Source of the DNA: Chromatiales bacterium
GTDB lineage: Bacteria; Pseudomonadota; Gammaproteobacteria; CAMYNG01
Length of the DNA stretch: 63,568 nt
Assembly (NCBI GenBank): GCA_027005735.1
Contig: JALTLF010000103.1
Span: forward strand, 1-63,568
Direction of reading: 5' to 3'
In this document: piece by piece, positions 18,847-41,249 of the stretch
Layout of the letters: each line of letters opens with the position of its first letter
Position numbering within the stretch: position 1 is the stretch's first letter
The notes under the pieces: generated by a model
What the model saw: the letters and a program-made list of their open reading frames with translations, nothing else
Database searches by the model: none
Told to the model about the DNA's origin: nothing
Translations under genes and position numbers: made by a program

Positions 18847-18916
18847 TCTCCGTGTAAAACCCGCCGCGGCTCACCGGCGTACCCAGCTCGCCGTTCATAC
18901 GGGAAGCGGGGACAAC

Positions 18917-19936
18917 TCAGCCGCCTGATGCCGCCTGCTTGCGGATTTCCATCAGGCCCGGCCACAGATCGATGAGCTGTTTGCGTATCTTGGGCTCGGA
19001 TTCCAGGACAAATGCGAGAAAGGCCTGTGCCACCAGTGATAGCTCCTTGCCCCTGGGATGCGCAATGTACCACTGTCGCTGTATCGGGAAACCCTCCACG
19101 TCCAACACCGCCACCGGACCCGTGCTACCCTCAAGTGCCAGGGTATGCAGGGAAAGGATCGACAAGCCAAGGCCACCAACGATGGCGTGCTTGATGGCTT
19201 CGTTACTGCCCAGTTCCATGCGGATCCTGGGGCGCAGCTTGGCGGCGGAAAACACTCGCAGGCTGGCATCTCGTATCCCCGAACCGGGCTCGCGCAGTAT
19301 AAGAGGCTCTTCAGCGATGATCTCAAGGGGAATCTGCTTCCGGCCCACCAACGGGTGGTTTTGCGGCGCCATGACGACCAGCGGATTGGGCGCGAAGGCA
19401 TGGGTTTCCACCTGGATATCGTCGGCCGGTGTTGAGCCCATGATGTAGAGATCATCCTCGTTGGATTGCATCCGCTCGATCACCCTGTCGCGGTTGGTCA
19501 CCTTGAGGGAGACCTCGATTCCTTCATGCATCTGGCTGAATTCACCCAGCAGCTCAGGTGCGACGTACTTGGCGGTGGTCACGACGCACAGGCGCAGGCG
19601 GCCACGCTTGATACCCTTGATATCGGCGATTTTCATCTCGAGGTTGGCGAGTGTCTCGAAAATCTCACGACAGGCCTCATAGAGTTCCAGTGCCGCCTCG
19701 GTGGGTTTGACACTGCGCCCGACGTGCTCGAACAGGGGCAGGCCCATGGCATCCGCCAGTTTCTTGACCTGCATGGAAACGGTCGGCTGGGTGAGAAAGA
19801 GTTCCTCCGAGGCGCGGGTAAAGTTCCCGTGCCGCACGATGGCCTCGAACACCTGGAGCTGGCGCAGGGTGGCATGCCGGATCAGGTAATCGGGCATGGA
19901 GATCGATGGCGTGGAATCGTGGTCTTGTGTCGGCAC
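18917..19936 (-). CDS. cbbR: LysR-type regulator CbbR, island copy (start 19936 GTG or 19897 ATG)
   Basis: MPDYLIRHATLRQLQVF, FTRASEELFLTQPTVSMQVK, REPGSG and SNEAIK; adjacent to the cso operon. Confidence 0.85.
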   Translation of the reverse strand: MPTQDHDSTPSISMPDYLIRHATLRQLQVFEAIVRHGNFTRASEELFLTQPTVSMQVKKLADAMGLPLFEHVGRSVKPTEAALELYEACREIFETLANLEMKIADIKGIKRGRLRLCVVTTAKYVAPELLGEFSQMHEGIEVSLKVTNRDRVIERMQSNEDDLYIMGSTPADDIQVETHAFAPNPLVVMAPQNHPLVGRKQIPLEIIAEEPLILREPGSGIRDASLRVFSAAKLRPRIRMELGSNEAIKHAIVGGLGLSILSLHTLALEGSTGPVAVLDVEGFPIQRQWYIAHPRGKELSLVAQAFLAFVLESEPKIRKQLIDLWPGLMEIRKQAASGG

Positions 19937-19959
19937 GGCTCGCCCCCCGGTATTAAAAC

Positions 19960-20060
19960 CGCGTAAAATACTAGGATATTAGAAGTTTATCACCGAACGG
20001 CAATAGATATATATAGATATTATCCGCCAATAGGATAGATAATAATAAATACATTAATCC
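19960..20060. promoter_or_regulatory. AT-rich LysR-type control region upstream of island cbbR
   Basis: ATAGAT half-sites at 20003, 20013 and 20035 within a very AT-rich patch. Confidence 0.5.
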
Positions 20061-20211
20061 CGATCCCCGCAGGCAGGTTCCAATACCCACCCTTGCAGGG
20101 CCGTGACTAATTGATTTACAGCCAAAATACAGCACCAGGCGCCTGATCGCCCCCTTTCAGCCGCGAAACAGGCCAGAACCGCCTGCCGCCGGACTGTGGG
20201 TTTGCCGGCGG

Positions 20212-20448
20212 TCAGTCCGGCCAGACGCGACGACCGCTCTGGTAGCCGTCAGACTGGGCCTTCGGGCCCTTCTCGGTGTGGCGCGCGACCTTCTTCTGTA
20301 GCGCCGGTTTGGCCGCAGCCGGCTTTTGCCTCCCTACGGGCATCGGCGCGGATGACTGTTTCGGCTCCCCGCTGCCAACACCCGTGCCGGCCTTGGTTTT
20401 GCGCATGGAACCCAAGAGTTTTTCTCGGGTCTTGTCCTTGCTGCTCAT
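20212..20448 (-). CDS. mcdB: Alpha-carboxysome positioning adaptor McdB
   Basis: 78 aa, basic N-terminal helix, disordered middle, C-terminal RVWPD typical of alpha-McdB; overlaps the mcdA stop. Confidence 0.8.
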   Translation of the reverse strand: MSSKDKTREKLLGSMRKTKAGTGVGSGEPKQSSAPMPVGRQKPAAAKPALQKKVARHTEKGPKAQSDGYQSGRRVWPD

Positions 20449-21074
20449 TGTCGGGTTATCTCCTCGATGAGTTGATCCAGTTCCTCGACAGCCCCGGCGC
20501 CACGCCTGCCCATGGCATAGACGCTACGACCTTCCAACGCGCTGGCACGGTACACCGCGCGTCGCCGAATGGCGGTAACTGCCACCGGTACGTCGATCTC
20601 CGACAGGGCGTCGCGCATCAACTGCGACAAGGTCGTGCGCGGCTCCAGTTGGTTGATGACCAGCAGGGCACGCAAGCCGGGGTTGTGCGTTCTGGCCTCT
20701 TGCACCGCCTGCTCGATGTGGACGGACGCCCACAGATCGAACGGCGACGGCTGCACCGGTATCAATGCCAGGTCACTAAAACGCAAAATAGTTCGTGTCT
20801 GCATCGCTTGAACAGATGGCGGGCAGTCCACCACTATATAGTCGTATTCCCCGCCGAGAGACCGAACCCTGCTGCCAGGGTCGTCGCTTGCGCTAATCAC
20901 CTCGGGCAAGGCAGTATCTTCCGAGATCGCGCGCCACTGCGCAGATGAGCCCTGTGGATCGGTGTCGAGTATTGCGGCCGAACCGGCCTGACGCGCCAGC
21001 CCAACGGCAAGATTTACCGCCAGCGTAGTCTTGCCGGCGCCACCTTTATTCCCAACCAGGGCGATGACGGGCAT
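20445..21074 (-). CDS. mcdA: ParA-family carboxysome positioning ATPase McdA
   Basis: GNKGGAGKTT, DTDPQGS and IVVDCPP; lies inside the cso operon, upstream of the WPD-ending partner. Confidence 0.85.
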   Translation of the reverse strand: MPVIALVGNKGGAGKTTLAVNLAVGLARQAGSAAILDTDPQGSSAQWRAISEDTALPEVISASDDPGSRVRSLGGEYDYIVVDCPPSVQAMQTRTILRFSDLALIPVQPSPFDLWASVHIEQAVQEARTHNPGLRALLVINQLEPRTTLSQLMRDALSEIDVPVAVTAIRRRAVYRASALEGRSVYAMGRRGAGAVEELDQLIEEITRQ

Positions 21075-21083
21075 CGGCTGACC

Positions 21084-21347
21084 TTAGTCTTTTTTCCTGG
21101 CGCTGAACAGTTCCTCGTAGGCTTCTGCCAGACGCCGCTGTGCTTCACCAAGCTCACTCGAGTCCTCGTCACCGTGGATAGTCACGTTGACGTAGTCCCG
21201 CCCGAACCCCATGTCTGGGAAAAGCCCTTCACGCTCCGAAATGTCCGCCGCGTCGTCGAGAAAGTCCCGTAAACTGTCATAGTCCGGAAAATCATAACGC
21301 CGTTCCAGTCGCACTGGGCGCGTACGTTCTTGCCACTGTTCACTCAT
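21084..21347 (-). CDS. Pterin-dehydratase-like Rubisco assembly factor (acRAF/Raf2)
   Basis: WQER.RP.RLERRYDF..Y..LRDFLD...P.MGFGRDYVNVTI pattern and cso-locus position. Confidence 0.8.
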   Translation of the reverse strand: MSEQWQERTRPVRLERRYDFPDYDSLRDFLDDAADISEREGLFPDMGFGRDYVNVTIHGDEDSSELGEAQRRLAEAYEELFSARKKD

Positions 21348-21360
21348 TCTCCCGCTCCTC

Positions 21361-21834
21361 TTAGCTGGCATTTGCACTTCCCTCGTTTGCGCCAGACCGC
21401 CCAAGTTCACTGAGCCATTCCGTCAGTTCCTGCGCGTGTTTCTTCTCCTCGCTAAGCAGTCCCTCGAAGAATACACGGTTGTCCTGGTCGCCGATACGGG
21501 AACAATGTGCCACGGCCTGCGTATACAACTGTACCAGTTCCAGCTCGAACTCCAGATCGTATGTCAACAGGTCACGCAGACTCTGGCCCAGTTTCACAGG
21601 ACGAAGCTGTGAGGCATTGGGCGCCACTGAGAGAGCCAGCATCCGGGCGATAATCCTTTCAGCATGCATCAGTTCTTCGTTGGCTTCATCACGCAGTTGC
21701 GCGGATTCCTCGACCAGGCCCCAGATCCCGAGCAGTCGGGCCTGCGTGGTGTAAAGCTGGACCGCAGAGAGCTCAAAACTCAGAGCCCGGCCGAGATAAC
21801 CCAGGACTTGCGAATCGGCATGAGTTTGCAACAT
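21361..21834 (-). CDS. Bacterioferritin-like protein of the carboxysome locus
   Basis: Ferroxidase ligand motifs ELSAVQLY, EELMHAE, ELELVQLY and EEKKH. Confidence 0.85.
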   Translation of the reverse strand: MLQTHADSQVLGYLGRALSFELSAVQLYTTQARLLGIWGLVEESAQLRDEANEELMHAERIIARMLALSVAPNASQLRPVKLGQSLRDLLTYDLEFELELVQLYTQAVAHCSRIGDQDNRVFFEGLLSEEKKHAQELTEWLSELGRSGANEGSANAS

Positions 21835-21876: not shown

Positions 21877-22191
21877 TTAGCTCCGCGACGGTCGGTTGCC
21901 GCCCGAGTCATCGAGAACAGGCTCAACCTCACGATGAGGACGGGCAATAATGTGCGCCGCTACCAGGCCATCGCCAACGCGCTCGCAGGCATCTGCGCCG
22001 GCACGGACGGCGGCATTTACTGCGCCGGTTTCGCCGCGAACGAGAACGGTGACATAGCCGCCACCGACAAACTCCCGCCCGATAAGGCGAACTTCTGCGG
22101 CCTTGGTCATGGCGTCCGCCGCTTCGATGGCGGGAACCAATCCGCGCGTTTCAATCATACCCAGTGCAATGCCAAAGTTTTCATTGGCCAT
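21877..22191 (-). CDS. csoS1: Carboxysome hexameric shell protein CsoS1
   Basis: GIALGMIETRGLVPAIEAADAMTKAAEV...HIIARPHREVEP. Confidence 0.97.
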   Translation of the reverse strand: MANENFGIALGMIETRGLVPAIEAADAMTKAAEVRLIGREFVGGGYVTVLVRGETGAVNAAVRAGADACERVGDGLVAAHIIARPHREVEPVLDDSGGNRPSRS

Positions 22192-22233: not shown

Positions 22234-22542
22234 TCAGGCCTTGGCTGCGTTGCCGCCTGTAGGCAATACCGGCTCCACTTCACGGTGAGGGCGAGCGATG
22301 ATGTGTGCGGCAACCAGCCCATCACCTACACGCTCACAGGCATCTGCGCCGGCACGTACCGCCGCGTTAACAGCACCCGTCTCACCGCGAACCAGTACGG
22401 ACACATATCCGCCACCGACGAATTCGCGCCCAATGAGACGAACCTCGGCCGCCTTGGTCATGGCATCGGCGGCTTCAATCGCCGGCACCAGACCTCGCGT
22501 CTCAATCATTCCCAAAGCAATACCATAGTTGTCGTTAGCCAT
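22234..22542 (-). CDS. csoS1: Carboxysome hexameric shell protein CsoS1 (paralog)
   Basis: Near-identical BMC domain with a different C-terminal tail. Confidence 0.97.
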   Translation of the reverse strand: MANDNYGIALGMIETRGLVPAIEAADAMTKAAEVRLIGREFVGGGYVSVLVRGETGAVNAAVRAGADACERVGDGLVAAHIIARPHREVEPVLPTGGNAAKA

Positions 22543-22606: not shown

Positions 22607-22864
22607 CTAAGATTGTTCTTCCTTCCAGAAATCTATAATTCCGCAGATCGTCAGATCTGTCAGCACCTCGTAATCGCCGGTCGCATACCTGGCTGCCGAT
22701 CCCATTGCCGTGAATACCCAGTTGCCTTCTCGGCAACCCACCGGATCGACCGCCACCTGGCGCTTTCCTGTTTTTACGTTTCGCAGAACCCTAAGGCTCG
22801 CATGTTCCAGACCAGAGATCCGCTGAGTACAGACGAGAGGGGCTTCCACCTGCAAAATCTCCAT
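22607..22864 (-). CDS. csoS4B: Carboxysome vertex pentamer CsoS4B
   Basis: MEILQVEAPLVCTQRI, VAVDPVGCREGNWVF and DLTICGIID. Confidence 0.92.
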   Translation of the reverse strand: MEILQVEAPLVCTQRISGLEHASLRVLRNVKTGKRQVAVDPVGCREGNWVFTAMGSAARYATGDYEVLTDLTICGIIDFWKEEQS

Positions 22865-22868
22865 GGTT

Positions 22869-23120
22869 CTATCTCCCTTCCGGCGGCCAGTGATCGATGA
22901 TCCCTACAATGGTCAGATCACTCGGATAATCCTTGCTGCCCGCGGCTTCACGCGCCGCGGAACTCCCCACGCATATAACCCAGTCACCCGGCTTGCAACC
23001 CACTGCATCGACGGCCACAGCAGACGCGCCACCATCGTTGACGACCTGCAAATGCCTATGACCCAAACCTGGTATGCGATTGGTCGAGACCAGAGGCCCT
23101 TCTACCTGGCAGATTTTCAT
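22869..23120 (-). CDS. csoS4A: Carboxysome vertex pentamer CsoS4A
   Basis: MKICQVEGPLVSTNRI, AVDAVGCKPGDWV, GSSAAREAAG and SDLTIVGIIDHW. Confidence 0.93.
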   Translation of the reverse strand: MKICQVEGPLVSTNRIPGLGHRHLQVVNDGGASAVAVDAVGCKPGDWVICVGSSAAREAAGSKDYPSDLTIVGIIDHWPPEGR

Positions 23121-24646
23121 CAATGCGCCCCCACTGAACTCTGTGCATATACAGACGAACCCAGAACTTCTATCCGCTCCCCGGCAGCGCAATCGCGGAT
23201 TGCCTGCAAGGTATGAAACAAACCTTTTTTTACCAGTTCTTCGTAACGCGCCTCGAGGGCTTCTGCCACTCGCCTGCAACTGGTAGCGGCTCGCTCGCGC
23301 GCACCTGGCACATGGCCGTGGTAATCGAAACGAATTACGACTGGAACCGGCAGCCCATGCGCGACATTCAGTCCGGTAAATATCTTTATGCCCACGTCCA
23401 GATCGGCTGCCCCTTCCTCGACCGTGTTCATATATGTGAAGTATGTGAGATTGCGTATCTGAATTTCTTCAAAGCCAATTCCGACCCCGATAAATCGCTC
23501 TGCGTGTCCGATATCCGGGTATGCGCCCCGGTAATTCCGTCTGACATACTCGAGTTGAGAAATATTGTTCGTCACCAGGCGACATACCAGATCAATCATG
23601 CCGGGCGTCGCGCCACTGCTGGCAGCGCGGACCGTTTTTTCAACCGTCACCATGGCCTGGTCGGCATTCATGCCACTCGTGGCCGCGTAAACTTTGCCCG
23701 TATCGACAAAAGTGTCGATGTCAATTTTTCCATTCTCGTCGGCAACGTGGATACGAATGGAATCTGTATCTGTATCCAGGCCAATCAACAGGAGATCGAT
23801 GGAGGCCCCGCAACAAAAACTGTTTTCCACAGCCTGCTGAAATGCATACAGGCTTTTCCGCCCGGCCTCAGACGCGCGGCGCGTATCTGAACCGTGGGCT
23901 GCACAGCCTTCGTGCTCCGGATCGCCAGAGCTGAAATGATAGACGACGGCCTTGAGATAGCGCGTTGGCTTGTCCGCGGTATCAGGGCGACCCTCACGAT
24001 AACGAAAGAACTCCGTCTCGATCCATTTCTCCAGGCTGTCCTCAATGTCAAACATCGCGCCTGCATATGATTTCCGCCTGACTTCCCGGTAAGGCAGTCG
24101 CAACACGTAGCTTATTACGTGCGCAAGCCTTCCATCGGCACAGGGTGAAACGTCCATCGTATGGAACCCACACCGCAACAGAAATGACTGGAAGTCCTCG
24201 TCTGTGTCAATATCCTGTCGGGTAAAGAAATCGTCGCTAAAGCGCCGGTATGTCTCGAACATGCACCAGGCATACAGGCCACGCATGTCCAGCTGATTAA
24301 CCCACGCATCTGCAAGTATTTGGCAGGGCAACTCAAAACCCAGTTGCTTGCGCGCCAGTTCCTGTGCCCTTTCTTCAAAGTTCCCCTCGTGCTGCAAGGC
24401 CGAAATCTGTCTCAATACGGGAACGATGTTGTCAAACGCATCTTTGACACGTTTTTCGTAGTTGAACAACTGCTGGTTCTGACGCTCGTTACACAAGGGA
24501 TGTGCTGCCCCGTCCGAAACAGCACGCGAAAAGGCGTGCCCTGCACCATCCGGGCGCACGGATTCCGCCCGCGCCGGCGCACCTGAGGCATTGATCGGCA
24601 TCGACCACCTCCGTGTACGTGCTGCTTTTCGTCGTGAACCCAACAT
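23120..24646 (-). CDS. csoS3: Carboxysomal carbonic anhydrase CsoSCA (CsoS3)
   Basis: HPLCNERQN, VSPCADGRL and YHFS..HEGCAAH zinc ligands. Confidence 0.95.
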   Translation of the reverse strand: MLGSRRKAARTRRWSMPINASGAPARAESVRPDGAGHAFSRAVSDGAAHPLCNERQNQQLFNYEKRVKDAFDNIVPVLRQISALQHEGNFEERAQELARKQLGFELPCQILADAWVNQLDMRGLYAWCMFETYRRFSDDFFTRQDIDTDEDFQSFLLRCGFHTMDVSPCADGRLAHVISYVLRLPYREVRRKSYAGAMFDIEDSLEKWIETEFFRYREGRPDTADKPTRYLKAVVYHFSSGDPEHEGCAAHGSDTRRASEAGRKSLYAFQQAVENSFCCGASIDLLLIGLDTDTDSIRIHVADENGKIDIDTFVDTGKVYAATSGMNADQAMVTVEKTVRAASSGATPGMIDLVCRLVTNNISQLEYVRRNYRGAYPDIGHAERFIGVGIGFEEIQIRNLTYFTYMNTVEEGAADLDVGIKIFTGLNVAHGLPVPVVIRFDYHGHVPGARERAATSCRRVAEALEARYEELVKKGLFHTLQAIRDCAAGERIEVLGSSVYAQSSVGAH

Positions 24647-24669: not shown

Positions 24670-26925
24670 TTAGCCGCGAGCCCCACCGGAATAGGTCACC
24701 AGGGACCCCTTCTCAGTATTGCCGCTACTGCCCGTGACCTTGCTGCTCGGCACAGGCAGTTCTTCATTACGCTTGGCGGCCAGTTCCATAGCCATCGACG
24801 ACGAATTACCACGGCGGGTAGGGTTCCGCTTCGTCGCGGACAGTCCTTCGGTACCGGTAACGCGCTCGTTACGGTCCCAGTCGTCGCCCGTAATTCGGAG
24901 TCCAGCGTCCTGACCCTCTCCCGTTACCCGCGACTTGATACGTTCTTCAACCACTGTCGTGACCTGCGGAGCCACCGGGGGTCCACCGTTCCCAAAGCGC
25001 GCTTCTTCCGTCCCGGTTACCTTGCCGTCGGCCTTGCCAAACGGCCCGGTAATTTGGCCTTTCTCGTATTTCGTACCCGTTACCGCCTCATGTTCCGCCG
25101 GCGCACGGGAAGCATGGCTCGGTGCCCCGACGCTGAACTGACCCCAGGGCGTCTCTCCCAGTTTCTGTGGAAAATCCGGGCTGGAACTGTCTGCCGGCAC
25201 ACCCGGGCAGGCATTGGCAAACTGATCAGCACCGACGTACGGCGTACCCGTGAGCGGCTCGCAGGCGCCCTTGTCAGCGCCAGTCAGCACGCCATTGAGA
25301 CCCGGCTGCTGGCCGGTGATCGGCATACCCGGCGTCGCACGACGCTGCGCGCTCCGCTCCCGCGCGATGAGCTGTTGGCCAGGCGGACAGTATTCCTGGT
25401 AGTTCTCCACCCCGGCATACGGTGTTCCCGTTACTGACTTGCACGTCCCAGGCTCGTCACCAGTTACCCTGGTATCACGGCCGGTCAGGGTACCGGTCAC
25501 GGGATTTTCCTTTAGCGTTGCCGACACCCCGACCTTGCGGTCGGTTGCCTTCGGCGTGGTGTTACAGAAGGTGCTGTACTGTTCCTGGCCGACATAGTCG
25601 TCACCTGTCACGTTGCGGCAACTGCCCGGTTCGTCACCGGTAACACGCTGGTTACGTCCCACCAGGGTCCCGGTTACGCTGCCGCCCCGCAGGGTACTGC
25701 TCACGCCGACCTTTTCCGGCGCGCGGCCACCATTGCCCGACTGCATGACCGACGTGCCAGTCAGTTCCCGTGTTGAACCCGACTCGTCGCCGGTCACCTT
25801 TTCGGAGCGACCCACATTGTTGCCGGTAACTGTTTTTCCCCTGCGTGTTTCCGAGCTCGTGATCTTGGGCGGCCCCGCTTCGACACTTGTATTGCAGAAT
25901 TCCTGCACCTGCCCCGCGCTCACGTACTGATTTCCGGTCACGCGTTTGCAGGTACCCGGTTCGTTTCCGGTTACCCGGGCACTACGATCCAGCCTGTTAC
26001 CACTCACGGTATTACCTGTCGCTGTCGAGGTAACCTGAACCTTGGCCGGCGATCTGGGTACTTCCGCCTGACAGAATTCCCGGAAAATTTCCGCACCCAG
26101 GTATTCTGTGCCAGTGACAGGACGACAGGTACTCGGCTCGTCACCAGTGACGGTGCTGCTGCGGCCAACAATGGTGCCGGTCACGGTCTGGCCGTGGCTC
26201 GTTTGACTTGCGCCGACCTTCCAGGGCGCATCCTCCGCCCCTGCGCTTTCCTTGCCGGGACGGATACGACCACTGGGTCGACACTTGCTGTCCGCACTGC
26301 CACTATCGCACTTGCCACGCGTGCTGCGCTCTTCGCGAATTGAACGCGCGAGTTCCCGCCCGGAAATATTCGGGTTCGTTGCGCGCGCAGTCTGGGCAGC
26401 GCTCGGGCCGTTCCCGGTCAGCGCCGCCTTGCCACGTGTCGAGAGGGCGATACGACGAGCGAGAGATGCCGCACGAGCCGGGTTTTCAATCTTCCTGCCG
26501 GCACGTATCACTGGCGCAGGGGATGCGACACCGGTGGCCGCAGAAACCTCCGACCGTTCCTTGCTCGCCTTACAACCGCAACCACATCCGGACTTTTCAG
26601 CTGCAGGGCCAGACTCGCTACTTGCCCGCACCGGCGCCGTTGTATTGCCAATTTCGTCGCTACGTGTACGGTCCTGGCTGACAACAGATGCCTTGCCACC
26701 GACCGACATGGCACGGCGGCGCGCCAGAGAATACTGGCGGGTTGACATGGCCGTTCCGGTGCCCGCGGCGCCCGCACTACTCGCCGTGTTCGCCGCTGGG
26801 TCGACTGTGGACGAGGCATTCTTGCTGCCCTGTCGGCTCTGCAGACCCGCCTTGCCTTTCTCGTAGGAAAGACGGCGACGCTCCATGGCGATCTGGCGTG
26901 CGGTCTTGTTAGCAGTTTGTGTCAT
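24670..26925 (-). CDS. csoS2: Carboxysome scaffold CsoS2
   Basis: Four N-terminal R-rich helix repeats, six VTG-rich M repeats, C-terminal LVTYSGGARG. Confidence 0.96.
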   Translation of the reverse strand: MTQTANKTARQIAMERRRLSYEKGKAGLQSRQGSKNASSTVDPAANTASSAGAAGTGTAMSTRQYSLARRRAMSVGGKASVVSQDRTRSDEIGNTTAPVRASSESGPAAEKSGCGCGCKASKERSEVSAATGVASPAPVIRAGRKIENPARAASLARRIALSTRGKAALTGNGPSAAQTARATNPNISGRELARSIREERSTRGKCDSGSADSKCRPSGRIRPGKESAGAEDAPWKVGASQTSHGQTVTGTIVGRSSTVTGDEPSTCRPVTGTEYLGAEIFREFCQAEVPRSPAKVQVTSTATGNTVSGNRLDRSARVTGNEPGTCKRVTGNQYVSAGQVQEFCNTSVEAGPPKITSSETRRGKTVTGNNVGRSEKVTGDESGSTRELTGTSVMQSGNGGRAPEKVGVSSTLRGGSVTGTLVGRNQRVTGDEPGSCRNVTGDDYVGQEQYSTFCNTTPKATDRKVGVSATLKENPVTGTLTGRDTRVTGDEPGTCKSVTGTPYAGVENYQEYCPPGQQLIARERSAQRRATPGMPITGQQPGLNGVLTGADKGACEPLTGTPYVGADQFANACPGVPADSSSPDFPQKLGETPWGQFSVGAPSHASRAPAEHEAVTGTKYEKGQITGPFGKADGKVTGTEEARFGNGGPPVAPQVTTVVEERIKSRVTGEGQDAGLRITGDDWDRNERVTGTEGLSATKRNPTRRGNSSSMAMELAAKRNEELPVPSSKVTGSSGNTEKGSLVTYSGGARG

Positions 26926-27005
26926 GTTTATCTCCACTACACCTGTGTCGTACTTGGCCTTCTTTTAGATCCTTTCCTCCGAGATAGGCTTGTTGGTTAC
27001 ACTGC

Positions 27006-30452: not shown

Positions 30453-30779
30453 TCAGCTGCGAAATTTTACCATGCGGGTCACCTGAATCTCGCTGACAAA
30501 TACCACGCCGGAGTGCTCACTGAAAAACGGCTCTAGCCCTTCCAGTATGGGATCAACGAGATCCTCCGGAACGGCAACAAGTATCATTATCAGCACATCA
30601 TCTTCGTTGAACATCAGGTGACCTTCATGGAAACCATGGCTGCCCTTGCCGGACAGGTTGTTGACGATGGTGTAGCCGGTAACGCCAGCACGATCAAGAA
30701 TGTCAGTAGCAAAAGCCTGGTGCGCTCCTTCCAGGATAATCTCGAGTTTTTTCAGTGTATTCAGCTTATGAATGTTCAT
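30453..30779 (-). CDS. SbtB-like P-II family protein
   Basis: KKLEII, GYTIV..LSGKGSHG and SGVVFVSEIQV; start coupled to the dabA stop (TAATG). Confidence 0.75.
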   Translation of the reverse strand: MNIHKLNTLKKLEIILEGAHQAFATDILDRAGVTGYTIVNNLSGKGSHGFHEGHLMFNEDDVLIMILVAVPEDLVDPILEGLEPFFSEHSGVVFVSEIQVTRMVKFRS

Positions 30780-33700: not shown

Positions 33701-33901
33701 ATACGCGGAGCGCTCAAGGAAACCGAGCCCATTGAACAAGCGAGTTCCCTTCTCGACTGCCTTTTCAAAAGGCATCTGTTCCAGCCCATGCAAAGGGTTA
33801 TGATGGATAAATGTACGCATGGGCCAGAAAAACGGCACCGGCTCACCCGCCACGTACACCATGCTTCTGATCTTTAGGTGTTGTCCAAGTGTCGTACTCA
33901 T
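30779..33901 (-). CDS. dabA: Inorganic carbon transporter subunit DabA (DUF2309)
   Basis: FIHHNPL, FCIDTRSE, VGHGS and DCGACGG beta-CA-like ligands; YGSGSKVYHNV. Confidence 0.93.
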   Translation of the reverse strand: MSTTLGQHLKIRSMVYVAGEPVPFFWPMRTFIHHNPLHGLEQMPFEKAVEKGTRLFNGLGFLERSAYQKYMSLNMVDRRHLEEEVDRFVSRRNEIPGIDLRATLMHLLTEIKEPVIKDTGTARVKDIQATIKGEKLADCEEPDPDAIATELQKELLGTKPLYEAIDILYGTDLGTSLDELVIKSCLDFFDEGQSVWKLPNREQGFFTSWRQVAQHNVRLSLRGLDISKILAAGAKPEDIIDFVMRTLKIPEEHWMGYFEREIARLHGWAGFIRWRSGARHYFWANKYPGDLVDFLAVRLTLALALLGERGRHHLASTRDEVMELITTQPREAWLRREYYSGKVLPCMAHRVEKILLSKAKKDPAAFFSEYFAAKRVENARSQAEMLSFLFDHMKGAKELKNLPDEAFASLFNTLREFEKHEGMIWLKAMEAAAMSDLIKGISLAPPEPREKRPFAQAIFCIDTRSERIRRQLETVGDYQTFGMAGFFGVPVSLMALGRGSEIHLCPALLTPRNMVLEMPMSVPDSTATLGALEKALHSLKESILTPFVTVEAIGLLFGFDMIGKTVTPHAYNRWRQKLNRDAPKTRLMLDKLTREQADSIVRAVQRAVIAKAVEQELEIDSATLTDDFVRELREMAMGHAEPELHRASALGMTEEDLTKLIECLREDYRINPAYSQLQMEELGRIGFTLDEQANFVGSALKSIGLTRDFSRFVLLVGHGSSSENNPYESALDCGACGGNHGLVSARVLAQMANKPEVRRRLNETGFAIPDDAWFVPALHNTTTDEITMHDLDLMPGSHLIYLDRLQNALNAASRLCARERLPTLNDTGSGSAESLEASYRKMQVKSLDWSQVRPEWGLSGNAWFIIGGRNLTRRLQLAGRAFLHSYDYRLDRRGLLLENIFAGPLVVGQWINMEHYFSTVDNERYGSGSKVYHNVAGRVGVMTGNLSDLRTGLPAQTVFRDGEPYHQPIRLITIVEAPFEHARRAIDSVVAVKNLVRNNWLRMVVIDPETEKACIYIDGEWHAQPVGNELTSVYSEEYCA

Positions 33902-34653
33902 TCTATAGCTCCCGAGCAGTACACTCCTACCACCGCAAGCCCCAAAAGGGAGATAACATTCACCAAAAGGTAGCCATGCCCAAGGTCACCAACCGCCCTC
34001 CGACCGCTACCGGAAAACAGACCCTGCAGGAGATTGGCAGCGGCCCATGTCCACAATAACCAGACACTGCCAACCGCGAACACGATGAACAGATTCGCCG
34101 GCATCGAGTTCATGATCATCAACAGGAGTGCGAAGAAAGATGGAAAAACCGGTGTTGCAATGATGCCAAGTATTACCATCACCACGATGGCCGAAAATCG
34201 GGGGGCGGATCGTGCCAGCCCTCCATACAGGCCCAGGTAGGCGGCACCAAAACGCGCTTCGAGCCAGCGACACAAAAATACCAACAAGATCAGTGGCAGG
34301 CTCATGCCCACGGCAAACAGAGCGAGGTACCGAGTATCAACTCCGTAGCCTACGCTTATCCACAAAAGGGACCAGGAAGATGTGGCAATGAAAGCCGTCC
34401 ACAGGCCGATGTCCCTCAATGCCAGGGCGCGCATAGCGTACATAAGCGCTGTCACTGTCCCCCAGAGGGGAAGCCAGCTGGGTATCTCCTCCATAAATTC
34501 GACGACCAGCACAATGCCCACCTGTGGCCACGCCAGAATGAGCAAGGCGCGCAACATTGGTCCTCCGGCACGCACGAACAGGCCGTTGAACAGCATACTC
34601 AGCGGAAACAGGGGCAGAAAAAACCCTGCCAACAGTACGATCCCCAGCTCCAT
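33898..34653 (-). CDS. Extra membrane subunit of the DAB operon (NuoM/MrpD half-antiporter-like)
   Basis: Polytopic; YGGLARSAPRF...LGIIATPVFPSF resembles the NuoM/MrpD C-terminal motif; abuts dabB and overlaps dabA. Confidence 0.7.
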   Translation of the reverse strand: MELGIVLLAGFFLPLFPLSMLFNGLFVRAGGPMLRALLILAWPQVGIVLVVEFMEEIPSWLPLWGTVTALMYAMRALALRDIGLWTAFIATSSWSLLWISVGYGVDTRYLALFAVGMSLPLILLVFLCRWLEARFGAAYLGLYGGLARSAPRFSAIVVMVILGIIATPVFPSFFALLLMIMNSMPANLFIVFAVGSVWLLWTWAAANLLQGLFSGSGRRAVGDLGHGYLLVNVISLLGLAVVGVYCSGAIE

Positions 34654-36333
34654 CTATCTCCACCTCAGGGCAACATTCAAACGCGCAGCTGTGCGGAGCA
34701 GAATCCGAGAGACCCAGGCATAGATATCGGCCAGATAAAACTCACGCGAAATCATCGCATACAAGATCAGCCGTACACGCCCAGGATCTCTACTCCCTGT
34801 CGTTCCATTTTTTTCCGAGTAGTAGGTCAACAGCCAGCCTGCTACGATGATCAGCGTCGTTGTCACGACCAGAATATCGAACCAGAAGATGTCTATACTC
34901 GAGGCATGATGCATAAGTTCCAGGAACTGCGCATCGGGATACAGGAAATTCTCGAAGACATGGCTAATGAGTGCATAACCCAACACTACGATAACAAATG
35001 ACGATAGCACCATCGCAAGCAAGCGCCCGGGTCGTTCGGTTCGCATGCGGTAAGTTGCAAAAATCAGCTGGGCGCCAGTCACCCATCCGAAGAACAATAG
35101 CACCACGGCACCCTGCTTCTGGAAAAAATCCTGCTGTACAGCTAGATGGGCAAGAACCAGCACCACAACGGGTATGACAAGTGTTACGGCGGCCATAAAC
35201 AGCCATGGCGGTTGACGTCTTGCAGGTTGTTTCTCGATCACAAATGTATAAAGTTCATCCTTTGGAATCCCGTCATCGTGTCGCGCTTCACCAATTACGC
35301 TACCGGCACCAAGAAAGAGCGCGCCTTTGAAGAGTCCGTGGGCAATCAGGTGGTATATGGCGAGCGAGAATGCGCCGACGCCACATTCCATAATCATGAA
35401 ACCCATCTGCCCCATGGTTGAGTAGCCAAGCGATTTCTTAATGTCATTTTGCGCGAGCATCAGAACCGAACCGATTACTGCCGTAACCAGCCCTACAATG
35501 AACAAAAGGTGCAAAATATCTCCTGAGTACACGAAGACGGGCGCAAAACGATTTATCAGAAACCCGCCAGCATTAACGATGCCAGCATGCATAAGCGCGG
35601 AAACGGGGGTAGGACCGTCCATCGTGTATGGCAACCAATTGTGCAGAAGAAACTGGGCCGATCTGGCGAAGGCCGCCACCGACAGGAGGATAGCGGCAGC
35701 CTGCGTCGCCGGGATACCGAGGATACTCATTGCAGCGGGTTCTTCACTCACCTGCTCGAGAAGATCCGGGATCGACCAGGTACCGTACGTATCAGCCAGA
35801 ATCACCGCAGCCAACACCAGGGCTATATCACCAAGGCGATAGGTCAGGAATGTCCAGAAAGCGTAACGCAGACTGTTCGGCCTGCAAGTGTCATGACCAA
35901 GGAGAAAATAGAGCAGTACTCCAATCAAATGCCACGCGATAAGCAGTGTAAGCAAATCCCCTGCGGCGACCATAACCAGAAGGGTGGCAGTCATCAGGTC
36001 AAGGAGCACAAAGAAACGTGCGTAGCCGGCTTCTTCCGCCATATACCTGATGGAAAACTTATGGACGATGAAGCTTATGCCGGCAATCAAGACGCCCATA
36101 ATCGCGCTTAGGGGATCTGCGAGCAGATATCCCCATGATCCAGCTATGCGTATACCAGCAAATTCATTGCCCTTCACCTCAAGCCCGAGTCCCACCAATG
36201 CCAGCAGGAATGTCAACAACGCTACCGATGTGCTTAGCCAGGCAACATGACGACGTAATTTCTCCTGGAACAGCAGAACCAGCACAGCCGAAAGGATCGG
36301 TAGAAGGGGTATTGCTGCAACCAGAAAATTCAT
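34654..36333 (-). CDS. dabB: Inorganic carbon transporter subunit DabB (NuoL-like)
   Basis: RSAQF..HNWLPYTMDGPTPVSALMHAG, DIKKSLGYSTMGQMG and HGLFKGALFL; in an operon with dabA. Confidence 0.9.
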   Translation of the reverse strand: MNFLVAAIPLLPILSAVLVLLFQEKLRRHVAWLSTSVALLTFLLALVGLGLEVKGNEFAGIRIAGSWGYLLADPLSAIMGVLIAGISFIVHKFSIRYMAEEAGYARFFVLLDLMTATLLVMVAAGDLLTLLIAWHLIGVLLYFLLGHDTCRPNSLRYAFWTFLTYRLGDIALVLAAVILADTYGTWSIPDLLEQVSEEPAAMSILGIPATQAAAILLSVAAFARSAQFLLHNWLPYTMDGPTPVSALMHAGIVNAGGFLINRFAPVFVYSGDILHLLFIVGLVTAVIGSVLMLAQNDIKKSLGYSTMGQMGFMIMECGVGAFSLAIYHLIAHGLFKGALFLGAGSVIGEARHDDGIPKDELYTFVIEKQPARRQPPWLFMAAVTLVIPVVVLVLAHLAVQQDFFQKQGAVVLLFFGWVTGAQLIFATYRMRTERPGRLLAMVLSSFVIVVLGYALISHVFENFLYPDAQFLELMHHASSIDIFWFDILVVTTTLIIVAGWLLTYYSEKNGTTGSRDPGRVRLILYAMISREFYLADIYAWVSRILLRTAARLNVALRWR

Positions 36334-36749: not shown

Positions 36750-36836
36750 TCACTGGCATGGTCATCACCTGCGCGCGTATGGCGTGAGTCTACACATCAC
36801 TCAGGCGTGAAGTTATTGAAATAATAGATGGAAGCG

Positions 36837-36961: not shown

Positions 36962-38161
36962 TTAGGTCCGCATCTGTCTCATCAGCTCATGCTCATCGAG
37001 GATTTCGTAGTCGTTTGTAATTACCTGCCCGGCTACGGGACTGAAATCGTTCTTCATATACTCCATGTAAGTCGGGTGAGATTTGCAGACCTCGATAACT
37101 TCTTCATGGGCTAAACGCACGAGCCAGCAGTACCGATATCGACTGGTGTCGTCCTTGGCGCGGCCGATACGTACGTCCAGCACGCCGGGTATGGTAACCA
37201 GCTTTTGTTGTCCCTTGCGCAACATGATCTGAATCACGGCGGGATCAGTCTCGTCACTGTCGTAGACGACCACATGCTCCACGTTGTTCCACATGCCACA
37301 CTGGATGAGCACCTCGGCGGCGCGCCCCGCACTGCGCCAGGCCTGCATCACGCGAGACACCTCTGTCACCATTGCTTCATGCGAACCTGCCATAAGACCT
37401 CGGTATGCGACCTCCTTTTGCAAAACGTTCTTCCCCAGAGTTGTCACGAATTTATCCGCCAGCGCGGTAAAGTAGTTAATCTTCGCCACGCCGTTATCGA
37501 TGAGCTTATGGTATTGCTGGTCGCTTAGGCCGGTGCCCCCATGAATTACTAGCGGAATTCCAACGCTTTCATTGATACGCGAAAGCCGACTGTAGTCGAG
37601 GCGTTTCTTGCCGTTAGCCTGTCCATGTACGGTGCCGATTGATATCGCCAGGAAATCTACACCGGATCGCTCCACATAGACCTTCGCCTCACTTGCGGAC
37701 GTCTGTACTGGCTGGTTACCTTCACCGTCACGCGGACTCATCCCTGCAACATGACCCAGCTCGCCTTCGACAGGAACACCGCAACCATGCGCGAGTTTCA
37801 CGGCCTCGCGTGTTCTCTCGATATTCCGTGGAAGCTCCTCATGAGAACTGTCGAACATCACGACATTACAACCGAGCCGAATGGCGGACTGGACGGATGC
37901 CACACTTTCGCAGTGGTCCATGCTCACCGCCACCGGGACACTGGAGCGTTTCGCAGCTGCCAGCACCGCAGGCATCAGCAATTCGGCGTCGAACATGTCG
38001 AAGTGAGGTTCGACCACGTTCAGAATCACGGGCGACCTTGCCTGCTCCGCGGCGTAGATCACCGCTCGCAGGAACTCTAGGTTGACTACTTCAAATGCCC
38101 CGACTGCGTAATGATTGTCGTAGGCATGGCAAAGCAGATCTCTGGTATTGACCAACGCCAT
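36962..38161 (-). CDS. Class II fructose-bisphosphate aldolase fused to a C-terminal Dabb (stress A/B barrel) domain
   Basis: YAVGAFE, SMDHC, VEGELGH, ISIGTVHG, LVIHGGTG and AKINY; C-terminal VEHVVVY..IPGVLDVRIG..HPTYMEY. Confidence 0.85.
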   Translation of the reverse strand: MALVNTRDLLCHAYDNHYAVGAFEVVNLEFLRAVIYAAEQARSPVILNVVEPHFDMFDAELLMPAVLAAAKRSSVPVAVSMDHCESVASVQSAIRLGCNVVMFDSSHEELPRNIERTREAVKLAHGCGVPVEGELGHVAGMSPRDGEGNQPVQTSASEAKVYVERSGVDFLAISIGTVHGQANGKKRLDYSRLSRINESVGIPLVIHGGTGLSDQQYHKLIDNGVAKINYFTALADKFVTTLGKNVLQKEVAYRGLMAGSHEAMVTEVSRVMQAWRSAGRAAEVLIQCGMWNNVEHVVVYDSDETDPAVIQIMLRKGQQKLVTIPGVLDVRIGRAKDDTSRYRYCWLVRLAHEEVIEVCKSHPTYMEYMKNDFSPVAGQVITNDYEILDEHELMRQMRT

Positions 38162-38596: not shown

Positions 38597-39211
38597 ATGA
38601 TTTCTGCAGATGAGGCATTACAGCGGCTACGCGAGGGAAACGCGCGCTTCGTATCGGGTCACCGCCGTGGGGACCCGCTGGTCGATCCCGTGCACAAGGG
38701 CAGCCTGATCAGTGGTCAGAACCCTTTTGCCATCATCCTTGGGTGTTCCGACTCGCGGGTCCCGGCTGAGATCATCTTCGACCAGGGACTGGGGGATCTG
38801 TTCGTTATCCGCGTCGCAGGAAATATCGTCGCGCCCTCGCAAATCGGCTCGGTGGAATTCGCTGCCGCGCGCTACGGCACACCCCTGGTGGTAGTCCTGG
38901 GACACTCCATGTGCGGTGCAGTAATGGCGACCATCGACGACCTGGAGCATCCGGCCGAGAACACATCCAAAAACGTGCTGTCAATCGTGAACCGCATCCG
39001 CCCAACGGTGGAGCCGCTGTTTCATACCGATCTGAGAAAGGAGCCGGACAAGCTGCTGCAAACGGCCATTCGCGCGAACATTCTAGCCGCGACCAATCAT
39101 CTGCAACACGGCTCGCAGATGCTGGAGCAGCTCATCCAGCAGTGCCAGTTAAAGATCGTCGGTGCCGAGTATTCTCTTGAAACCGGCAAGGTGGAATTTT
39201 TCGAGAATTGA
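38597..39211 (+). CDS. Beta-class carbonic anhydrase
   Basis: LREGNARF, ILGCSDSRVP, RVAGN and VLGHSMCGAV. Confidence 0.93.
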   Translation: MISADEALQRLREGNARFVSGHRRGDPLVDPVHKGSLISGQNPFAIILGCSDSRVPAEIIFDQGLGDLFVIRVAGNIVAPSQIGSVEFAAARYGTPLVVVLGHSMCGAVMATIDDLEHPAENTSKNVLSIVNRIRPTVEPLFHTDLRKEPDKLLQTAIRANILAATNHLQHGSQMLEQLIQQCQLKIVGAEYSLETGKVEFFEN

Positions 39212-39322
39212 GAAAAACATGCGTCGTGAATTCAACTTGTAAGTGCAGCTCTACGTGAAGACAAGTGGGCAAGCTGCGGTAGGATTTTGGCTTGTCTCAC
39301 CGCCAAGTAAGAGGAAGCACAC

Positions 39323-40285
39323 ATGAGAACCTACACGCAGCTTATCCAACAGGAACGATACCTAATTTATATCCTGAAGAAAGAGAAATATAGCCAGGCG
39401 CGGATTGCCGCGCTTCTGGGGCGCGATAAATCCACCATCAGTCGGGAGTTGCGGCACAATCGGGGCCAGAAAGGCTAGCGGCCCAAACAGGCTCACAAGC
39501 GGGCGCTTTAGCGGCGTCTCGGCAAGGCTCAGCCCCGTATTGGGGGGCGAGTCTGGCATCGGGTCAGGGTGCTGCTCCGCAAGGAATGGCGTCCTGAGGA
39601 GGACGCAGGGCGGATAGCGATGGAACAAGGCGTCTCTATCAGTCATGAGTGGATTTACCAATACATTTATGCGGATAAACGCTCAGGCGGCAACCTGTAC
39701 CGGTATCTGCGCTGCCAGAAGGCTCGACGTAAGCGTTGTGCCGCCTATGACCGGCGTGGCTGTATCCCCAACCAGGTCTCGATTGACGACCGCCCGGCCA
39801 TTGTCGACAGCAGGCGACGCTTCGGCGACTGGGAAGGCGATACCGTGATCGGCAAGGGCCACCGGCGGTGCCCTGGTGACGCTGGTCGAGCGCAAGTCGC
39901 TGTATACCATTATCCGGTCCGTCCTCCACAAGACGGCCAGGGCGGTTCGAGAGGCTGTCGTAGAGGGACTGACCACCTATATCGACTGGGTGCATACCAT
40001 TACCTATGACAACGGGCGGGAGTTTGCCGACCATGAAGGCATGGCCAGCGACCCTGATGCTCGTATCTATTTCACGCACCCTTATGCCTCCTGGGAACGC
40101 AGACTGAACGCGAATACCAATGGCCTCGTCCGGCAATACTTTCCGAAAGACCGGGACCTGACCACCGTCACTCAATATGAAGTCGAGCAGACCATGGATA
40201 AACTCAATCACCGCCCAAGGAAGTCGCTGGGCTATCGGACACCCTATGAAGTCTTCTTCAACACCATGACTTCATTAACCGTTGC
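39323..40285 (+). pseudogene. IS30 transposase pseudogene
   Basis: STISRELR, ISHEWIY, WEGDTVIG and TYDNGREF; in-frame TAG at 39476 and 39509; +1 frameshift near 39866; NENTNG changed to NANTNG. Confidence 0.9.
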
Positions 40286-40339
40286 CCCGGAGAGAGTTCG
40301 GACCTGTAAACTGTAGTGGAATTCGGAACACGTATTTAG
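40282..40339. mobile_element. MITE copy 4, right-hand 58-bp fragment (subtype B)
   Basis: TTGCCCCGGAGAGAGTTCGGACCTGTAAACTGTAGTGGAATTCGGAACACGTATTTAG, nearly identical to the end of copy 3. Confidence 0.85.
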
Positions 40340-40511
40340 CAACTTGAATTCGCACCCTAATGTTTTCTGGCGAATCAACCGAATCAGGCGAGCAACCCGA
40401 GGAAAAAACGCCGGCGCCAGGCCCGTCATCACTGACCGCCGCTTCCGCTTGACGCGGTACCGGATGAAGGGCACCCATTTCACTTGCCAATGGGGGAGGT
40501 AGTGCGTCTGT

Positions 40512-40904
40512 CTATTCCGCCTTGTACCAGACGGGGCCCGTCTTGAGCCGGTAGACGGAAAGGACGATGGGAATACTGAAGATGACCATCAGGACGAGTC
40601 CGCCGATGAAGTGATTACTCGTCATGAGACCCACCCCCCACAACAGACCAAAGAATCCCGGCAGGATGATGCCCCAGAATATCGTGGCAGCCTTACCGTA
40701 GATCCTTCCTTTTGCGGTTGTATAGCCCTTTCGGGCATCGCAGGAGGGACAGACAAGCGCATCCACGTGGAGGGTCGTTCGGCAAAAGGGACATTCTGTT
40801 TCGTCTTCCTTGAGGATCTTTGGCATCGGCGCGCCACACTTGGGACAGCTTTGCGCACGATCAGAAACATCGTGTCCACAATCTTCACATTTTACCAGTG
40901 CCAT
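40512..40904 (-). CDS. Double zinc-ribbon membrane protein
   Basis: CEDC..CPKC and CPFC..CPSC followed by two TM helices. Confidence 0.75.
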   Translation of the reverse strand: MALVKCEDCGHDVSDRAQSCPKCGAPMPKILKEDETECPFCRTTLHVDALVCPSCDARKGYTTAKGRIYGKAATIFWGIILPGFFGLLWGVGLMTSNHFIGGLVLMVIFSIPIVLSVYRLKTGPVWYKAE

Positions 40905-41249
40905 GCTGTTTCCCCCCCCTTTTTTTGCTGCCACAGGATTGTTCTTGTATCAGGCGTTGCCGCCAGCTCTCTGCCGGCGCCTCTTGCAGGCTCAGCACGC
41001 TTGTACGTGGGGGCCCACAGGAGGGAGAAAAATAACCACACCGCCGGACTCACCAGGAAACTGCTCCCTGAAATATACGGAAAAGCATGGATTACGACCA
41101 GCGGGGTGGTCAAGACATACTTATGGGTTATATATCAGCACGCGCCGATAATCTGAAAAGCCTGCCTGCCGACGACTGAAATCTCCAGGGCGGCATTTCG
41201 CCAGGCAGCAAGATTCCCTCTTCGCGCCCTGTCTGCCAGAATACCCGCC

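Follow-up and report, generated by a model that had tools for sequence, protein, structure and literature searches.

Where does a complete CO2-concentrating mechanism (CCM) that differs in composition from the DNA around it come from, and did it arrive in one step? The question is raised by a contig of 63,568 nucleotides from an uncultured gammaproteobacterium (Chromatiales bacterium, GenBank assembly GCA_027005735.1, contig JALTLF010000103.1), referred to below in its full length as the window. In this contig, about 22 kb of low-GC DNA between the helicase gene rep and a POT-type transporter gene (the island) encode a carboxysome, a DAB pump and their accessory proteins. A sequence-only reading had proposed that the island is a self-contained CCM module gained horizontally in one piece. 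We find that it is indeed foreign and self-contained, but that its history is more complicated than a single clean insertion of 22 kb between rep and POT. Its genes make up a complete alpha-carboxysome supercluster for CO2 concentration, of a type common to marine and saline sulfur-oxidising Gammaproteobacteria, and we consider it probable, with moderate confidence, that its acquisition was followed by one or more recombinational replacements.

All genes named in the sequence-only reading were recovered with Pfam and NCBIfam. From left to right, the island and its two borders contain:

16837..18846, plus strand: rep helicase (Pfam UvrD-helicase, UvrD_C), GC content at third codon positions (GC3) 0.85; host-composition left flank, with the 3′ half as left junction zone
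18917..19936, minus strand: cbbR-type LysR regulator (Pfam HTH_1, LysR_substrate), GC3 0.75, at the end of the cso operon
20212..20448, minus strand: mcdB (type 1 alpha-McdB), 78 amino acids, downstream of mcdA
20445..21074, minus strand: mcdA, ParA-type ATPase (Pfam AAA_31, CbiA, ParA; NCBIfam ParA_partition)
21084..21410, minus strand: acRAF-like, pterin-4a-carbinolamine-dehydratase (PCD)-like protein, true start probably at 21347 or 21371
21361..21834, minus strand: ferritin-like (bacterioferritin-like) protein of the cso operon (Pfam Ferritin)
21877-22191 and 22234-22542, minus strand: two csoS1 shell hexamer genes (Pfam BMC), a 79% direct repeat
22607-22864, minus strand: csoS4B, vertex protein (Pfam EutN_CcmL)
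22869-23120, minus strand: csoS4A, vertex protein (Pfam EutN_CcmL)
23120..24646, minus strand: csoSCA, carboxysomal carbonic anhydrase (CsoSCA_N 139, CsoSCA_cat 361 and CsoSCA_C 179 bits)
24670..26937, minus strand: csoS2, scaffold protein (Pfam CsoS2_M, 549 bits)
27006-27344, minus strand: cbbS (Pfam RuBisCO_small)
27399-28811, minus strand: cbbL (Pfam RuBisCO_large, RuBisCO_large_N)
29141-29830, plus strand: csoS1D, tandem BMC protein of 229 amino acids (Pfam BMC; NCBIfam CcmP-like), divergent from cbbL
29833-30414, plus strand: NUDIX hydrolase (Pfam NUDIX), after csoS1D and divergent from cbbL
30453-30788, minus strand: P-II-like protein (Pfam P-II)
30779-33901, minus strand: dabA (Pfam DabA, PF10070, 833 bits)
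33898-34653, minus strand: membrane protein of 251 amino acids, between dabA and dabB
34654-36333, minus strand: dabB, 559 amino acids (Pfam Proton_antipo_M, Proton_antipo_N)
36962..38161, minus strand: class II aldolase-like protein (Pfam F_bP_aldolase on residues 4-280 of 399) with an extra C-terminal domain
38597..39211, plus strand: beta-class carbonic anhydrase (beta-CA; Pfam Pro_CA), the last gene shared with the island of the sister lineage described below
40512..40934, minus strand: zinc-ribbon membrane protein (Pfam DZR, Zn_ribbon), GC3 0.62, low GC
41250..42656, plus strand: POT/PTR2 transporter (Pfam PTR2), GC3 0.88, the first host-composition gene on the right

The presence of CsoS2 and CsoSCA, both specific to alpha-carboxysomes, identifies this as a cso locus; genes for the shell proteins CsoS1, CsoS4A/B and CsoS1D lie beside cbbL and cbbS, and DabA is encoded beside a NuoL/Mrp-antiporter-type DabB, the gene pair of a DAB pump. 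The RubisCO of the island would be form IA, judging from gene context and from 96-99% identity to the carboxysomal CbbL of relatives. The N-terminus of McdA, MPVIALVGNKGGAGKTT, contains a deviant Walker A box with the signature lysine, by which, in a ParA-type ATPase encoded in the cso operon, alpha-McdA is recognised (PMC8359340). McdB has no Pfam match; it starts with the charged stretch MSSKDKTREK and ends in GRRVWPD, i.e. VWPD, and a V(I)WPD C-terminus with an invariant tryptophan has been reported for all alpha-McdB proteins (PMC8359340). The acRAF-like protein matches Pfam Pterin_4a with 24.3 bits, under the 26-bit cutoff, and the position of its gene after the ferritin-like gene is kept in contigs L090, L093, L098 and L099 (contigs of other assemblies are cited by our L numbers where they need to be told apart) and on plasmid pTs417. 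The csoS1D-NUDIX pair is likewise kept in the window, L093, L094, L098, L099 and pTs417.

Judged by family membership, the DAB complex (DabA, DabB, the 251-residue partner and the P-II-like protein) would turn CO2 into cytosolic bicarbonate, and CsoSCA would turn bicarbonate into CO2 inside the CsoS1/CsoS4/CsoS1D shell, in which CsoS2 is expected to pack form IA RubisCO. McdAB would space the carboxysomes, the acRAF-like protein may aid RubisCO assembly, and CbbR is the predicted regulator.

We called genes from open reading frames (ORFs) and codon-position GC and then measured GC3 gene by gene. The low GC and A/T-rich wobble positions that had been claimed for the block from ∼18.9 to 41.2 kb are evident on both sliding and per-gene scales. 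GC per 1-kb window is 0.505-0.626 across 19-41 kb, against 0.58-0.73 in the rest of the window; GC3 is 0.57-0.69 from mcdA through the zinc-ribbon gene and intermediate (0.75-0.78) in cbbR and mcdB, against 0.75-0.94 in 35 flank genes. The right edge is abrupt, with GC stepping from 0.53-0.57 to 0.68 at 41.2-41.3 kb, the start of POT; the left edge is gradual and runs through cbbR and mcdB. A tetranucleotide profile, proposed in the sequence-only reading as a check, was also computed and shows an island signature alien to the flanks. In GC-corrected z-score correlations (TETRA), the left and right flanks correlate with r=0.90 and island and flanks with 0.58. In sliding windows of 6 kb, r lies at 0.76-0.85 over the flanks and drops to 0.31-0.54 in the island interior; 10-kb host pieces correlate with each other at 0.77-0.86 and with the island halves at 0.32-0.55. 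The two island halves correlate with each other at only 0.46.

The window contains its own control, a second RubisCO locus without shell genes:

56678..63376, cbbO, cbbQ, cbbS and cbbL on the minus strand, cbbR on the plus strand: form IAq cluster, outside the island

Laid out as cbbL-cbbS-cbbQ-cbbO with a divergent cbbR (56.7-63.4 kb; Pfam VWA, CbbQ_C, AAA_5, RuBisCO_small, RuBisCO_large, LysR), this cluster has a lowish overall GC (0.61) but, as had been supposed, a host-like composition, with GC3 of 0.79-0.90 and TETRA r of 0.76-0.80. Since it keeps the host signature and GC3, the compositional anomaly of the island is not a property of carbon-fixation genes. The island cbbL and the second cbbL (60799-62313) share 80-81% amino-acid identity. 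We regard the block as very probably foreign DNA in a host lineage of ∼65% GC, a judgement that sums over the replacement, single-insertion and integrase-type models discussed below.

The closest relative found is a sister lineage represented by L090, L093 and L097, overlapping pieces of one strain from two independent assemblies. Its Rep is 93% identical at the amino-acid level, and its flanks share 93-97% (∼95%) nucleotide identity with those of the window. It carries the same island with the same gene order and the same low GC3 directly after rep, which implies that the gain was neither recent nor strain-specific. The sequence-only reading had held that such synteny in close relatives, together with gene trees matching the species tree, would speak against horizontal gain; the synteny half of this is what we observe.

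The two lineages differ far more inside the island than around it. Divergence at four-fold degenerate sites (d4, F81-corrected, window against sister) is 0.13 in the flanks (95% interval 0.10-0.15; 880 sites; raw p 0.115), 0.49 from cbbR to csoS2 (0.44-0.55; raw p 0.36), 0.77 from cbbS to the P-II gene (0.67-0.91; raw p 0.47), and 1.11 from dabA to the carbonic anhydrase (CA) gene (1.00-1.27; raw p 0.57). The island thus exceeds the flanks 4-9 times, at three significantly different levels along its length. Amelioration was rejected as the cause of this excess, since co-inheritance under the host substitution process (F81, host four-fold frequencies) predicts p=0.14 against the 0.36-0.57 observed. 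Codon bias from high expression was rejected as well: it does not explain the pattern because cbbL, expected to be the most expressed gene, has a four-fold identity of 0.52 and is more diverged than csoSCA (0.69). The DabA proteins of window and sister are 75% identical, a value equal to the 75-78% between clusters from genomes of 48%, 52% and 58% GC. At the right edge, the zinc-ribbon gene shows 90% nucleotide identity and a four-fold identity of 0.75, compared with 0.86 for POT. At the left edge divergence climbs within rep itself, where identity to the sister falls from 0.945-0.965 in the first 1 kb to 0.886-0.91 in the last 1 kb (14/166 against 28/150 four-fold differences). As far as these alignments tell, the history of the island is several times deeper than that of its flanks and uneven along its length. 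This argues for allelic replacement or mosaic recombination rather than one insertion followed by descent.

The sister lineage also bears a scar. Immediately 3′ of the beta-CA stop codon, both of its independent assemblies contain a 219-bp direct repeat of the rep 3′ end (rep′). It corresponds to the final 462 bp of rep, from which 243 internal bp have been deleted, and ends exactly at the rep stop codon. It is followed by an ORF of 200 amino acids (orf200), the zinc-ribbon gene and POT. The repeat has a GC3 of 0.75 and is ∼97% identical to the sister's own rep, compared with 84-85% to the rep of the window, which places the origin of rep′ after the split of the two lineages. Low GC continues for 1.3 kb past rep′, so that the low-GC zinc-ribbon gene lies beyond the scar. 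A search of the window for a second rep 3′ end found none. The earlier statement that no att sites were found fits the window but needs qualifying for the sister lineage, in which this direct repeat, long and host-like for an att site, lies on the far side of the island.

We propose that the cluster arrived from relatives of roughly 50-57% GC at a rearrangement-prone junction directly after rep, and that it moved by host recombination without an integrase of its own. After this first arrival, at least one of the two sister lineages would have acquired it anew or exchanged it, in whole or in part, for a diverged allele of this cluster at the same site. Such an event would explain both the patchwork of divergence levels and the second rep 3′ end of the sister lineage; duplicates of this kind are expected when DNA inserts through rep homology by a single crossover (Campbell-type) or in another duplicative way.

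Several observations weigh against this proposal. The sister always carries the closest allele, and the two alleles form one clade, as vertical descent would also give. The incongruence between host and CCM relatedness described below uses Rep as its single host marker, along with family-level name matches between different metagenome-assembled genomes. In the distant host L098 the cluster lies in the same orientation 2.7 kb from rep, and this, with the purE-purK links described below, would also fit an old, vertically kept location. Only ∼7 kb of flank were compared with the sister, and unusual conservation of that DNA would mean that the contrast is overstated. With its host-like GC3 (0.85-0.91), the rep 3′ end does not look donor-derived, and rep′ lies 1.3 kb inside the low-GC tract instead of at its edge.

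To the left of rep, the block amtB-glnK-...-comM-rep is conserved among relatives. The best named Rep matches come from Thiohalomonadales (62-65%), and a Rep search of genome contigs gave nothing above 62% identity among the matches listed. Four nearer outgroups (Rep 62-67%) have no island after rep within the 0.6-10 kb examined. L092 (Rep 67%, about 10 kb examined) has a convergent cytochrome c gene there, L100 (65%, 6.9 kb) has TonB and ExbBD, L101 (65%, only 0.6 kb) has another gene, and L102, Thiohalomonas denitrificans (62%, about 10 kb), has DUF2189 and then cytochrome c. The sequence-only reading had suggested looking for adjacent rep and POT genes in relatives; they are neighbours in no outgroup, the usual neighbour of rep, also in many other Gammaproteobacteria, being the convergent cytochrome c gene, of which the window has a homologue:

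47707..48168, plus strand: cytochrome c (Cytochrome_CBB3), probable displaced ancestral neighbour of rep

Homologues of this protein (35-44%) are encoded convergently and directly after rep in L011, L012, L019, L025, L026, L031, L036, L048 and L092, close to rep in L102, and between rep and the cluster in L098. In the window the gene lies 29 kb from rep and is inverted. From these comparisons, the junction after rep is variable, and the island occurs at it only in this genus. Three side observations concern this neighbourhood. A single inversion of ∼18.9-48.2 kb would bring rep and cytochrome c together again and is a candidate only; tRNA-Arg(CCG) (47322-47398, minus strand) adjoins the cytochrome c gene; and in T. 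denitrificans comM, just upstream of rep, seems to be interrupted by a Tn7-like element (L102, 2368-9550; TnsA, Mu-type transposase, TniB, TniQ).

Among the alternatives, a single 22-kb insertion between rep and POT in an ancestor without a CCM, followed by vertical descent, slow amelioration and pickup of transposable elements, survives best, and we still think it rather unlikely. It accounts for the foreign composition, for the island of the sister lineage at the same site, for its absence after rep in the four outgroups over the DNA examined, and for the finding that window and sister alleles are mutually closest in all 14 proteins compared; rep′ could be read as marking an insertion beside rep. 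It does not account for the 4-9-fold excess of d4 at three levels, which amelioration fails to reproduce, nor for island halves that differ from each other in signature as much as they differ from the host. The repeat is younger than the split of the two lineages and leaves the low-GC orf200 and zinc-ribbon gene outside, rep lies next to POT in no relative, and the host already has a form IAq RubisCO.

Related clusters elsewhere bear on both the source and the age of the locus. A common order (aldolase, dabB, the 251-residue protein gene, dabA, P-II, NUDIX and csoS1D, cbbLS, csoS2, csoSCA, csoS4AB, two csoS1, ferritin-like gene, acRAF, mcdAB, cbbR) occurs in several uncultured lineages, namely L094/L095 (GC ∼0.48), L096/L098 (∼0.58) and L099 (∼0.52). 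The composition of the cluster is native in L094 (GC3 ∼0.47), L096/L098 (∼0.7) and L099 (∼0.5), and low GC is therefore not intrinsic to the cluster genes. The island of the window (GC ∼0.55) fits a donor of intermediate GC; protein searches for a donor identified none, the best matches outside the sister being 67% for DabA and 73% for CsoS2 (75% and 84%, respectively, between window and sister). The Rep of L098 is only 53% identical, yet its CsoS2 (72%) and DabA (65%) are among the closest. Thioalkalispiraceae and Thiohalophilus have a more similar Rep (58-60%) with CsoS2 of 58-59% and DabA of 61%. On this one host marker, relatedness of host and CCM appears incongruent. The island CbbR is 83-85% identical to those of L098 and L099. 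Plasmid pTs417 of Ca. Thiodictyon syntrophicum carries a near-identical gene set, with an IS66 element and a toxin-antitoxin pair as neighbours, and such a plasmid may be a vehicle for the module.

Could the cluster instead have kept its place near rep, cytochrome c and purEK ever since an early gammaproteobacterial ancestor, with its low GC and fast synonymous change arising locally? We judge this improbable, and some linkages are what it would lead one to expect. L098 keeps cbbR, tatA, DUF1003, cytochrome c and rep in the same relative orientation, with the cbbR end 2.7 kb from the convergent cytochrome c-rep pair. The purE-purK genes lie inside the cluster, between the P-II gene and NUDIX, in L094 (7894-9527) and L096 (13795-15416), and also inside the cluster in L095; in the window they are found at 52485-54253, 13 kb to the right of beta-CA, the last shared gene of the island. 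In addition, the named DabA and Rep matches come from the same broad 'Thiohalo-' group. Such linkages could be relics of an ancient neighbourhood or products of recombination through conserved adjacent genes. Against antiquity stand the native composition of the cluster in L094, L096/L098 and L099, the host-like second RubisCO cluster of the window, the four nearer outgroups without the cluster, and a tetranucleotide signature that is alien even after correction for GC. No known mechanism, moreover, holds 22 kb at GC3 0.6 within a genome of GC3 0.87 while raising the synonymous rate 4-9 fold. A shared redoxin linkage, considered at first, was dropped: the redoxin gene of L096 and the adjacent gene for 190 amino acids have no detectable homology to the redoxin gene (43586-44113) and the 183-residue protein gene (42786-43337) of the window. 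In the assembly of L096 and L098 (GCA_016125505.1), an AT-rich insertion of ∼4-6 kb (L096 15600-19500 / L098 1-3800; GC 0.34-0.43, small ORFs, DUF3800) interrupts the CCM supercluster between purK and the redoxin gene.

Two elements of the island are mobile in origin:

36538-36751: miniature inverted-repeat transposable element (MITE) of 214 bp, 94% identical to the copy at 5797-6010
39213..40339, plus strand: IS30-family pseudo-element, consisting of a helix-turn-helix fragment and a frameshifted catalytic part

Three further MITE copies lie outside the island (1890-2103, 5797-6010 and 63373-63495). What had been called an IS30 remnant appears to be an almost full-length, though broken, member of the IS30 family. 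HTH_38 matches a fragment of 51 amino acids; two fragments of 146 amino acids have no Pfam match, but tblastn aligns them with IS30-like ORFs in L018 and L054 at 36-37% identity. At the right, the element ends in a clear inverted repeat and is 95% identical to the MITE end, and its left inverted repeat is degenerate (16/24 by eye); the MITEs look like deletion derivatives of it. Two MITE copies had been counted inside the island and taken as a sign of long residence. Only one is full, that at 40276-40339 being the right end of the IS30-family element itself, and both the MITE and the element are missing from the sister lineage, the alignment showing a gap at the IS30-family element. Both are therefore late insertions of the window lineage, which say nothing on residence time and have no bearing on how the island was gained. 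In the window, the IS30-family element stands at the position that rep′ and orf200 hold in the sister lineage, and these two may have been lost through an IS-associated deletion.

Neither the island of the window, in which every ORF is accounted for, nor that of the sister, nor L098 or L099 contains an integrase, recombinase, excisionase or transfer gene, in agreement with the earlier remark that the block carries no integrase. The only tRNA gene of the window, Arg(CCG), lies 6 kb outside the island in host-composition DNA. A site-specific integrative element that targets the rep 3′ end, restores the gene and leaves the old end behind as rep′, its integrase lost or located outside the region, is a marginally poorer proposal than an ancient locus, and an improbable one. 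It would fit the direct repeat around the island of the sister, the cluster near rep in two unrelated hosts (the genus of the window and L098), and the divergence climbing in the 3′ half of rep. Besides the missing mobility genes, it is at odds with a repeat that measured 462 bp until part of it was deleted, a considerable length for an att site, that is host-like in GC3 and nearly identical to the resident rep, and that the window lacks; L098 has three genes between cbbR and rep, and no rep fragment was noted there. That the low-GC block was joined to a high-GC genome in error, through chimeric metagenome assembly or binning, is very improbable: the window is metagenome-derived and several contigs break at IS30/MITE repeats (L003, L004), but an identical POT protein occurs on nine contigs from several assemblies, four of which carry the island-flank junction (L001, L002, L005 and L006, independent assemblies, at 99.8-99.9%), one 32-kb sister-lineage contig from another sample spans flank, island, rep′ and flank, i.e. 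both junctions, and a host MITE lies inside the island.

Extending the replacement proposal beyond this genus, the supercluster might be an exchangeable cassette of fixed order and ∼20 kb, without mobility genes and kept after rep, whose diverged alleles are swapped between species and perhaps genera; we put this forward only tentatively. If it is true, deeply diverged alleles are swapped by host recombination through a conserved neighbour gene, and an organelle and its pump have a population history of their own. The island may be likened to O-antigen and capsule loci, which are low-GC blocks at a fixed site, with diverged alleles in near-identical backgrounds and no mobility genes of their own, exchanged by recombination in the flanks. 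Those loci are under diversifying selection by phages and immunity and differ in gene content, whereas the island has identical content and order and two alleles have been seen; we know of no diversifying selection on the CCM cluster.

The cso operon of Halothiobacillus neapolitanus reportedly comes with DAB pumps and acRAF. Like the island, it has form IA cbbLS, csoS2, csoSCA, csoS4AB, csoS1 copies, csoS1D, a ferritin-like gene, acRAF, mcdA-mcdB (VWPD), dabA/dabB and a LysR regulator. The island, which is known from its genes alone, differs in a four-gene DAB operon (dabB, the 251-residue membrane protein gene, dabA, P-II), in having the aldolase with its extra C-terminal domain and NUDIX as fixed companions, in cbbQ/cbbO lying outside with the second, host-like RubisCO, and in the soluble beta-CA at its end. 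Its gene set as a whole is that of the Halothiobacillus-type CCM, the McdAB system of which is described in PMC8359340.

Transfer of carboxysome loci is already documented. In 'Ferrovum' JA12 and F. myxofaciens, a carboxysome cluster with a G+C content off the genome average lies in a collinear block and is present or absent among close strains; no integration site was identified, and the pattern was read as horizontal gain and later loss (PMC4886054). That cluster has a higher GC than its host, with integrases, a transposase, a tRNA gene and plasmid genes nearby, whereas the island has a lower GC and no integrase, and adds an allele divergence far above that of its flanks and the rep′ scar. 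Carboxysome loci of Thiomicrorhabdus aquaedulcis and Actinobacteria, whose trees depart from the host genus, were read as horizontal transfer (PMC9164163). Those cases rest on gene trees between genera or phyla, the present one on composition, synteny and within-genus synonymous divergence of a typical complete locus. Alpha-carboxysomes were also transferred into cyanobacteria (PMC8359340). On pTs417 (NZ_CP020371.1, strain Cad16T) the set comprises cbbLS, csoS2, csoSCA, csoS4AB, two csoS1, a ferritin-like, a PCD-like and a small hypothetical protein, LysR, CsoS1D and NUDIX, followed by a carbon transporter. It differs from the island in that CsoS2 is only 53% identical, the transporter is SulP instead of DAB, no mcdA is annotated, and the replicon is a plasmid instead of a chromosome. 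A cso locus on such a mobile replicon implies that the module travels as a unit.

What is less usual here is the combination of the same site and order within a genus, a deeper history of the alleles, the rep′ scar and the lack of an integrase. Pump, shell, enzymes, positioning system, assembly factor and regulator are kept together as a ∼20-kb unit across hosts of 48-65% GC, and exchange at the same site between near-identical backgrounds without an integrase supports the CCM as a portable module, which matters for attempts to install one in industrial strains or crops. The case leaves the known picture of carboxysome evolution unchanged.

Some companions of the cso genes deserve mention. The four-gene DAB order (30453..36333) recurs in L093, L094, L096 and L099, and the multi-pass membrane protein of 251 amino acids is encoded in every related DAB operon seen (the same four contigs). 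It has no Pfam match, and in NCBIfam it weakly resembles NuoM over the C-terminal half of the latter (E 3e-4, far below cutoff); from its constant position, it may be a third DAB subunit. The aldolase gene is a constant neighbour of the DAB operon, and the extra C-terminal part of its product matches a Dabb (stress-responsive alpha/beta barrel) domain in relatives. As constant companions, the NUDIX hydrolase, the 251-residue protein and the aldolase with its extra domain are candidates for missing CCM functions. The beta-CA gene adjoins the cluster only in the window and the sister lineage, and no such gene was found next to the aldolase in L094-L096. The enzyme has no obvious signal peptide. 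A free cytosolic carbonic anhydrase is expected to dissipate the bicarbonate pool.

Two minor features were seen in the flanks. Between two host genes at 8947-9240 lies a tandem repeat with a period of 87 bp, whose three overlapping copies of 120 nt are 98-100% identical. At 51377-51643, comparison with L001, a strain of the same population, shows an insertion or deletion in a PAS-GGDEF-EAL gene, the product of which has 506 amino acids there and 819 in L003, L004 and the window.

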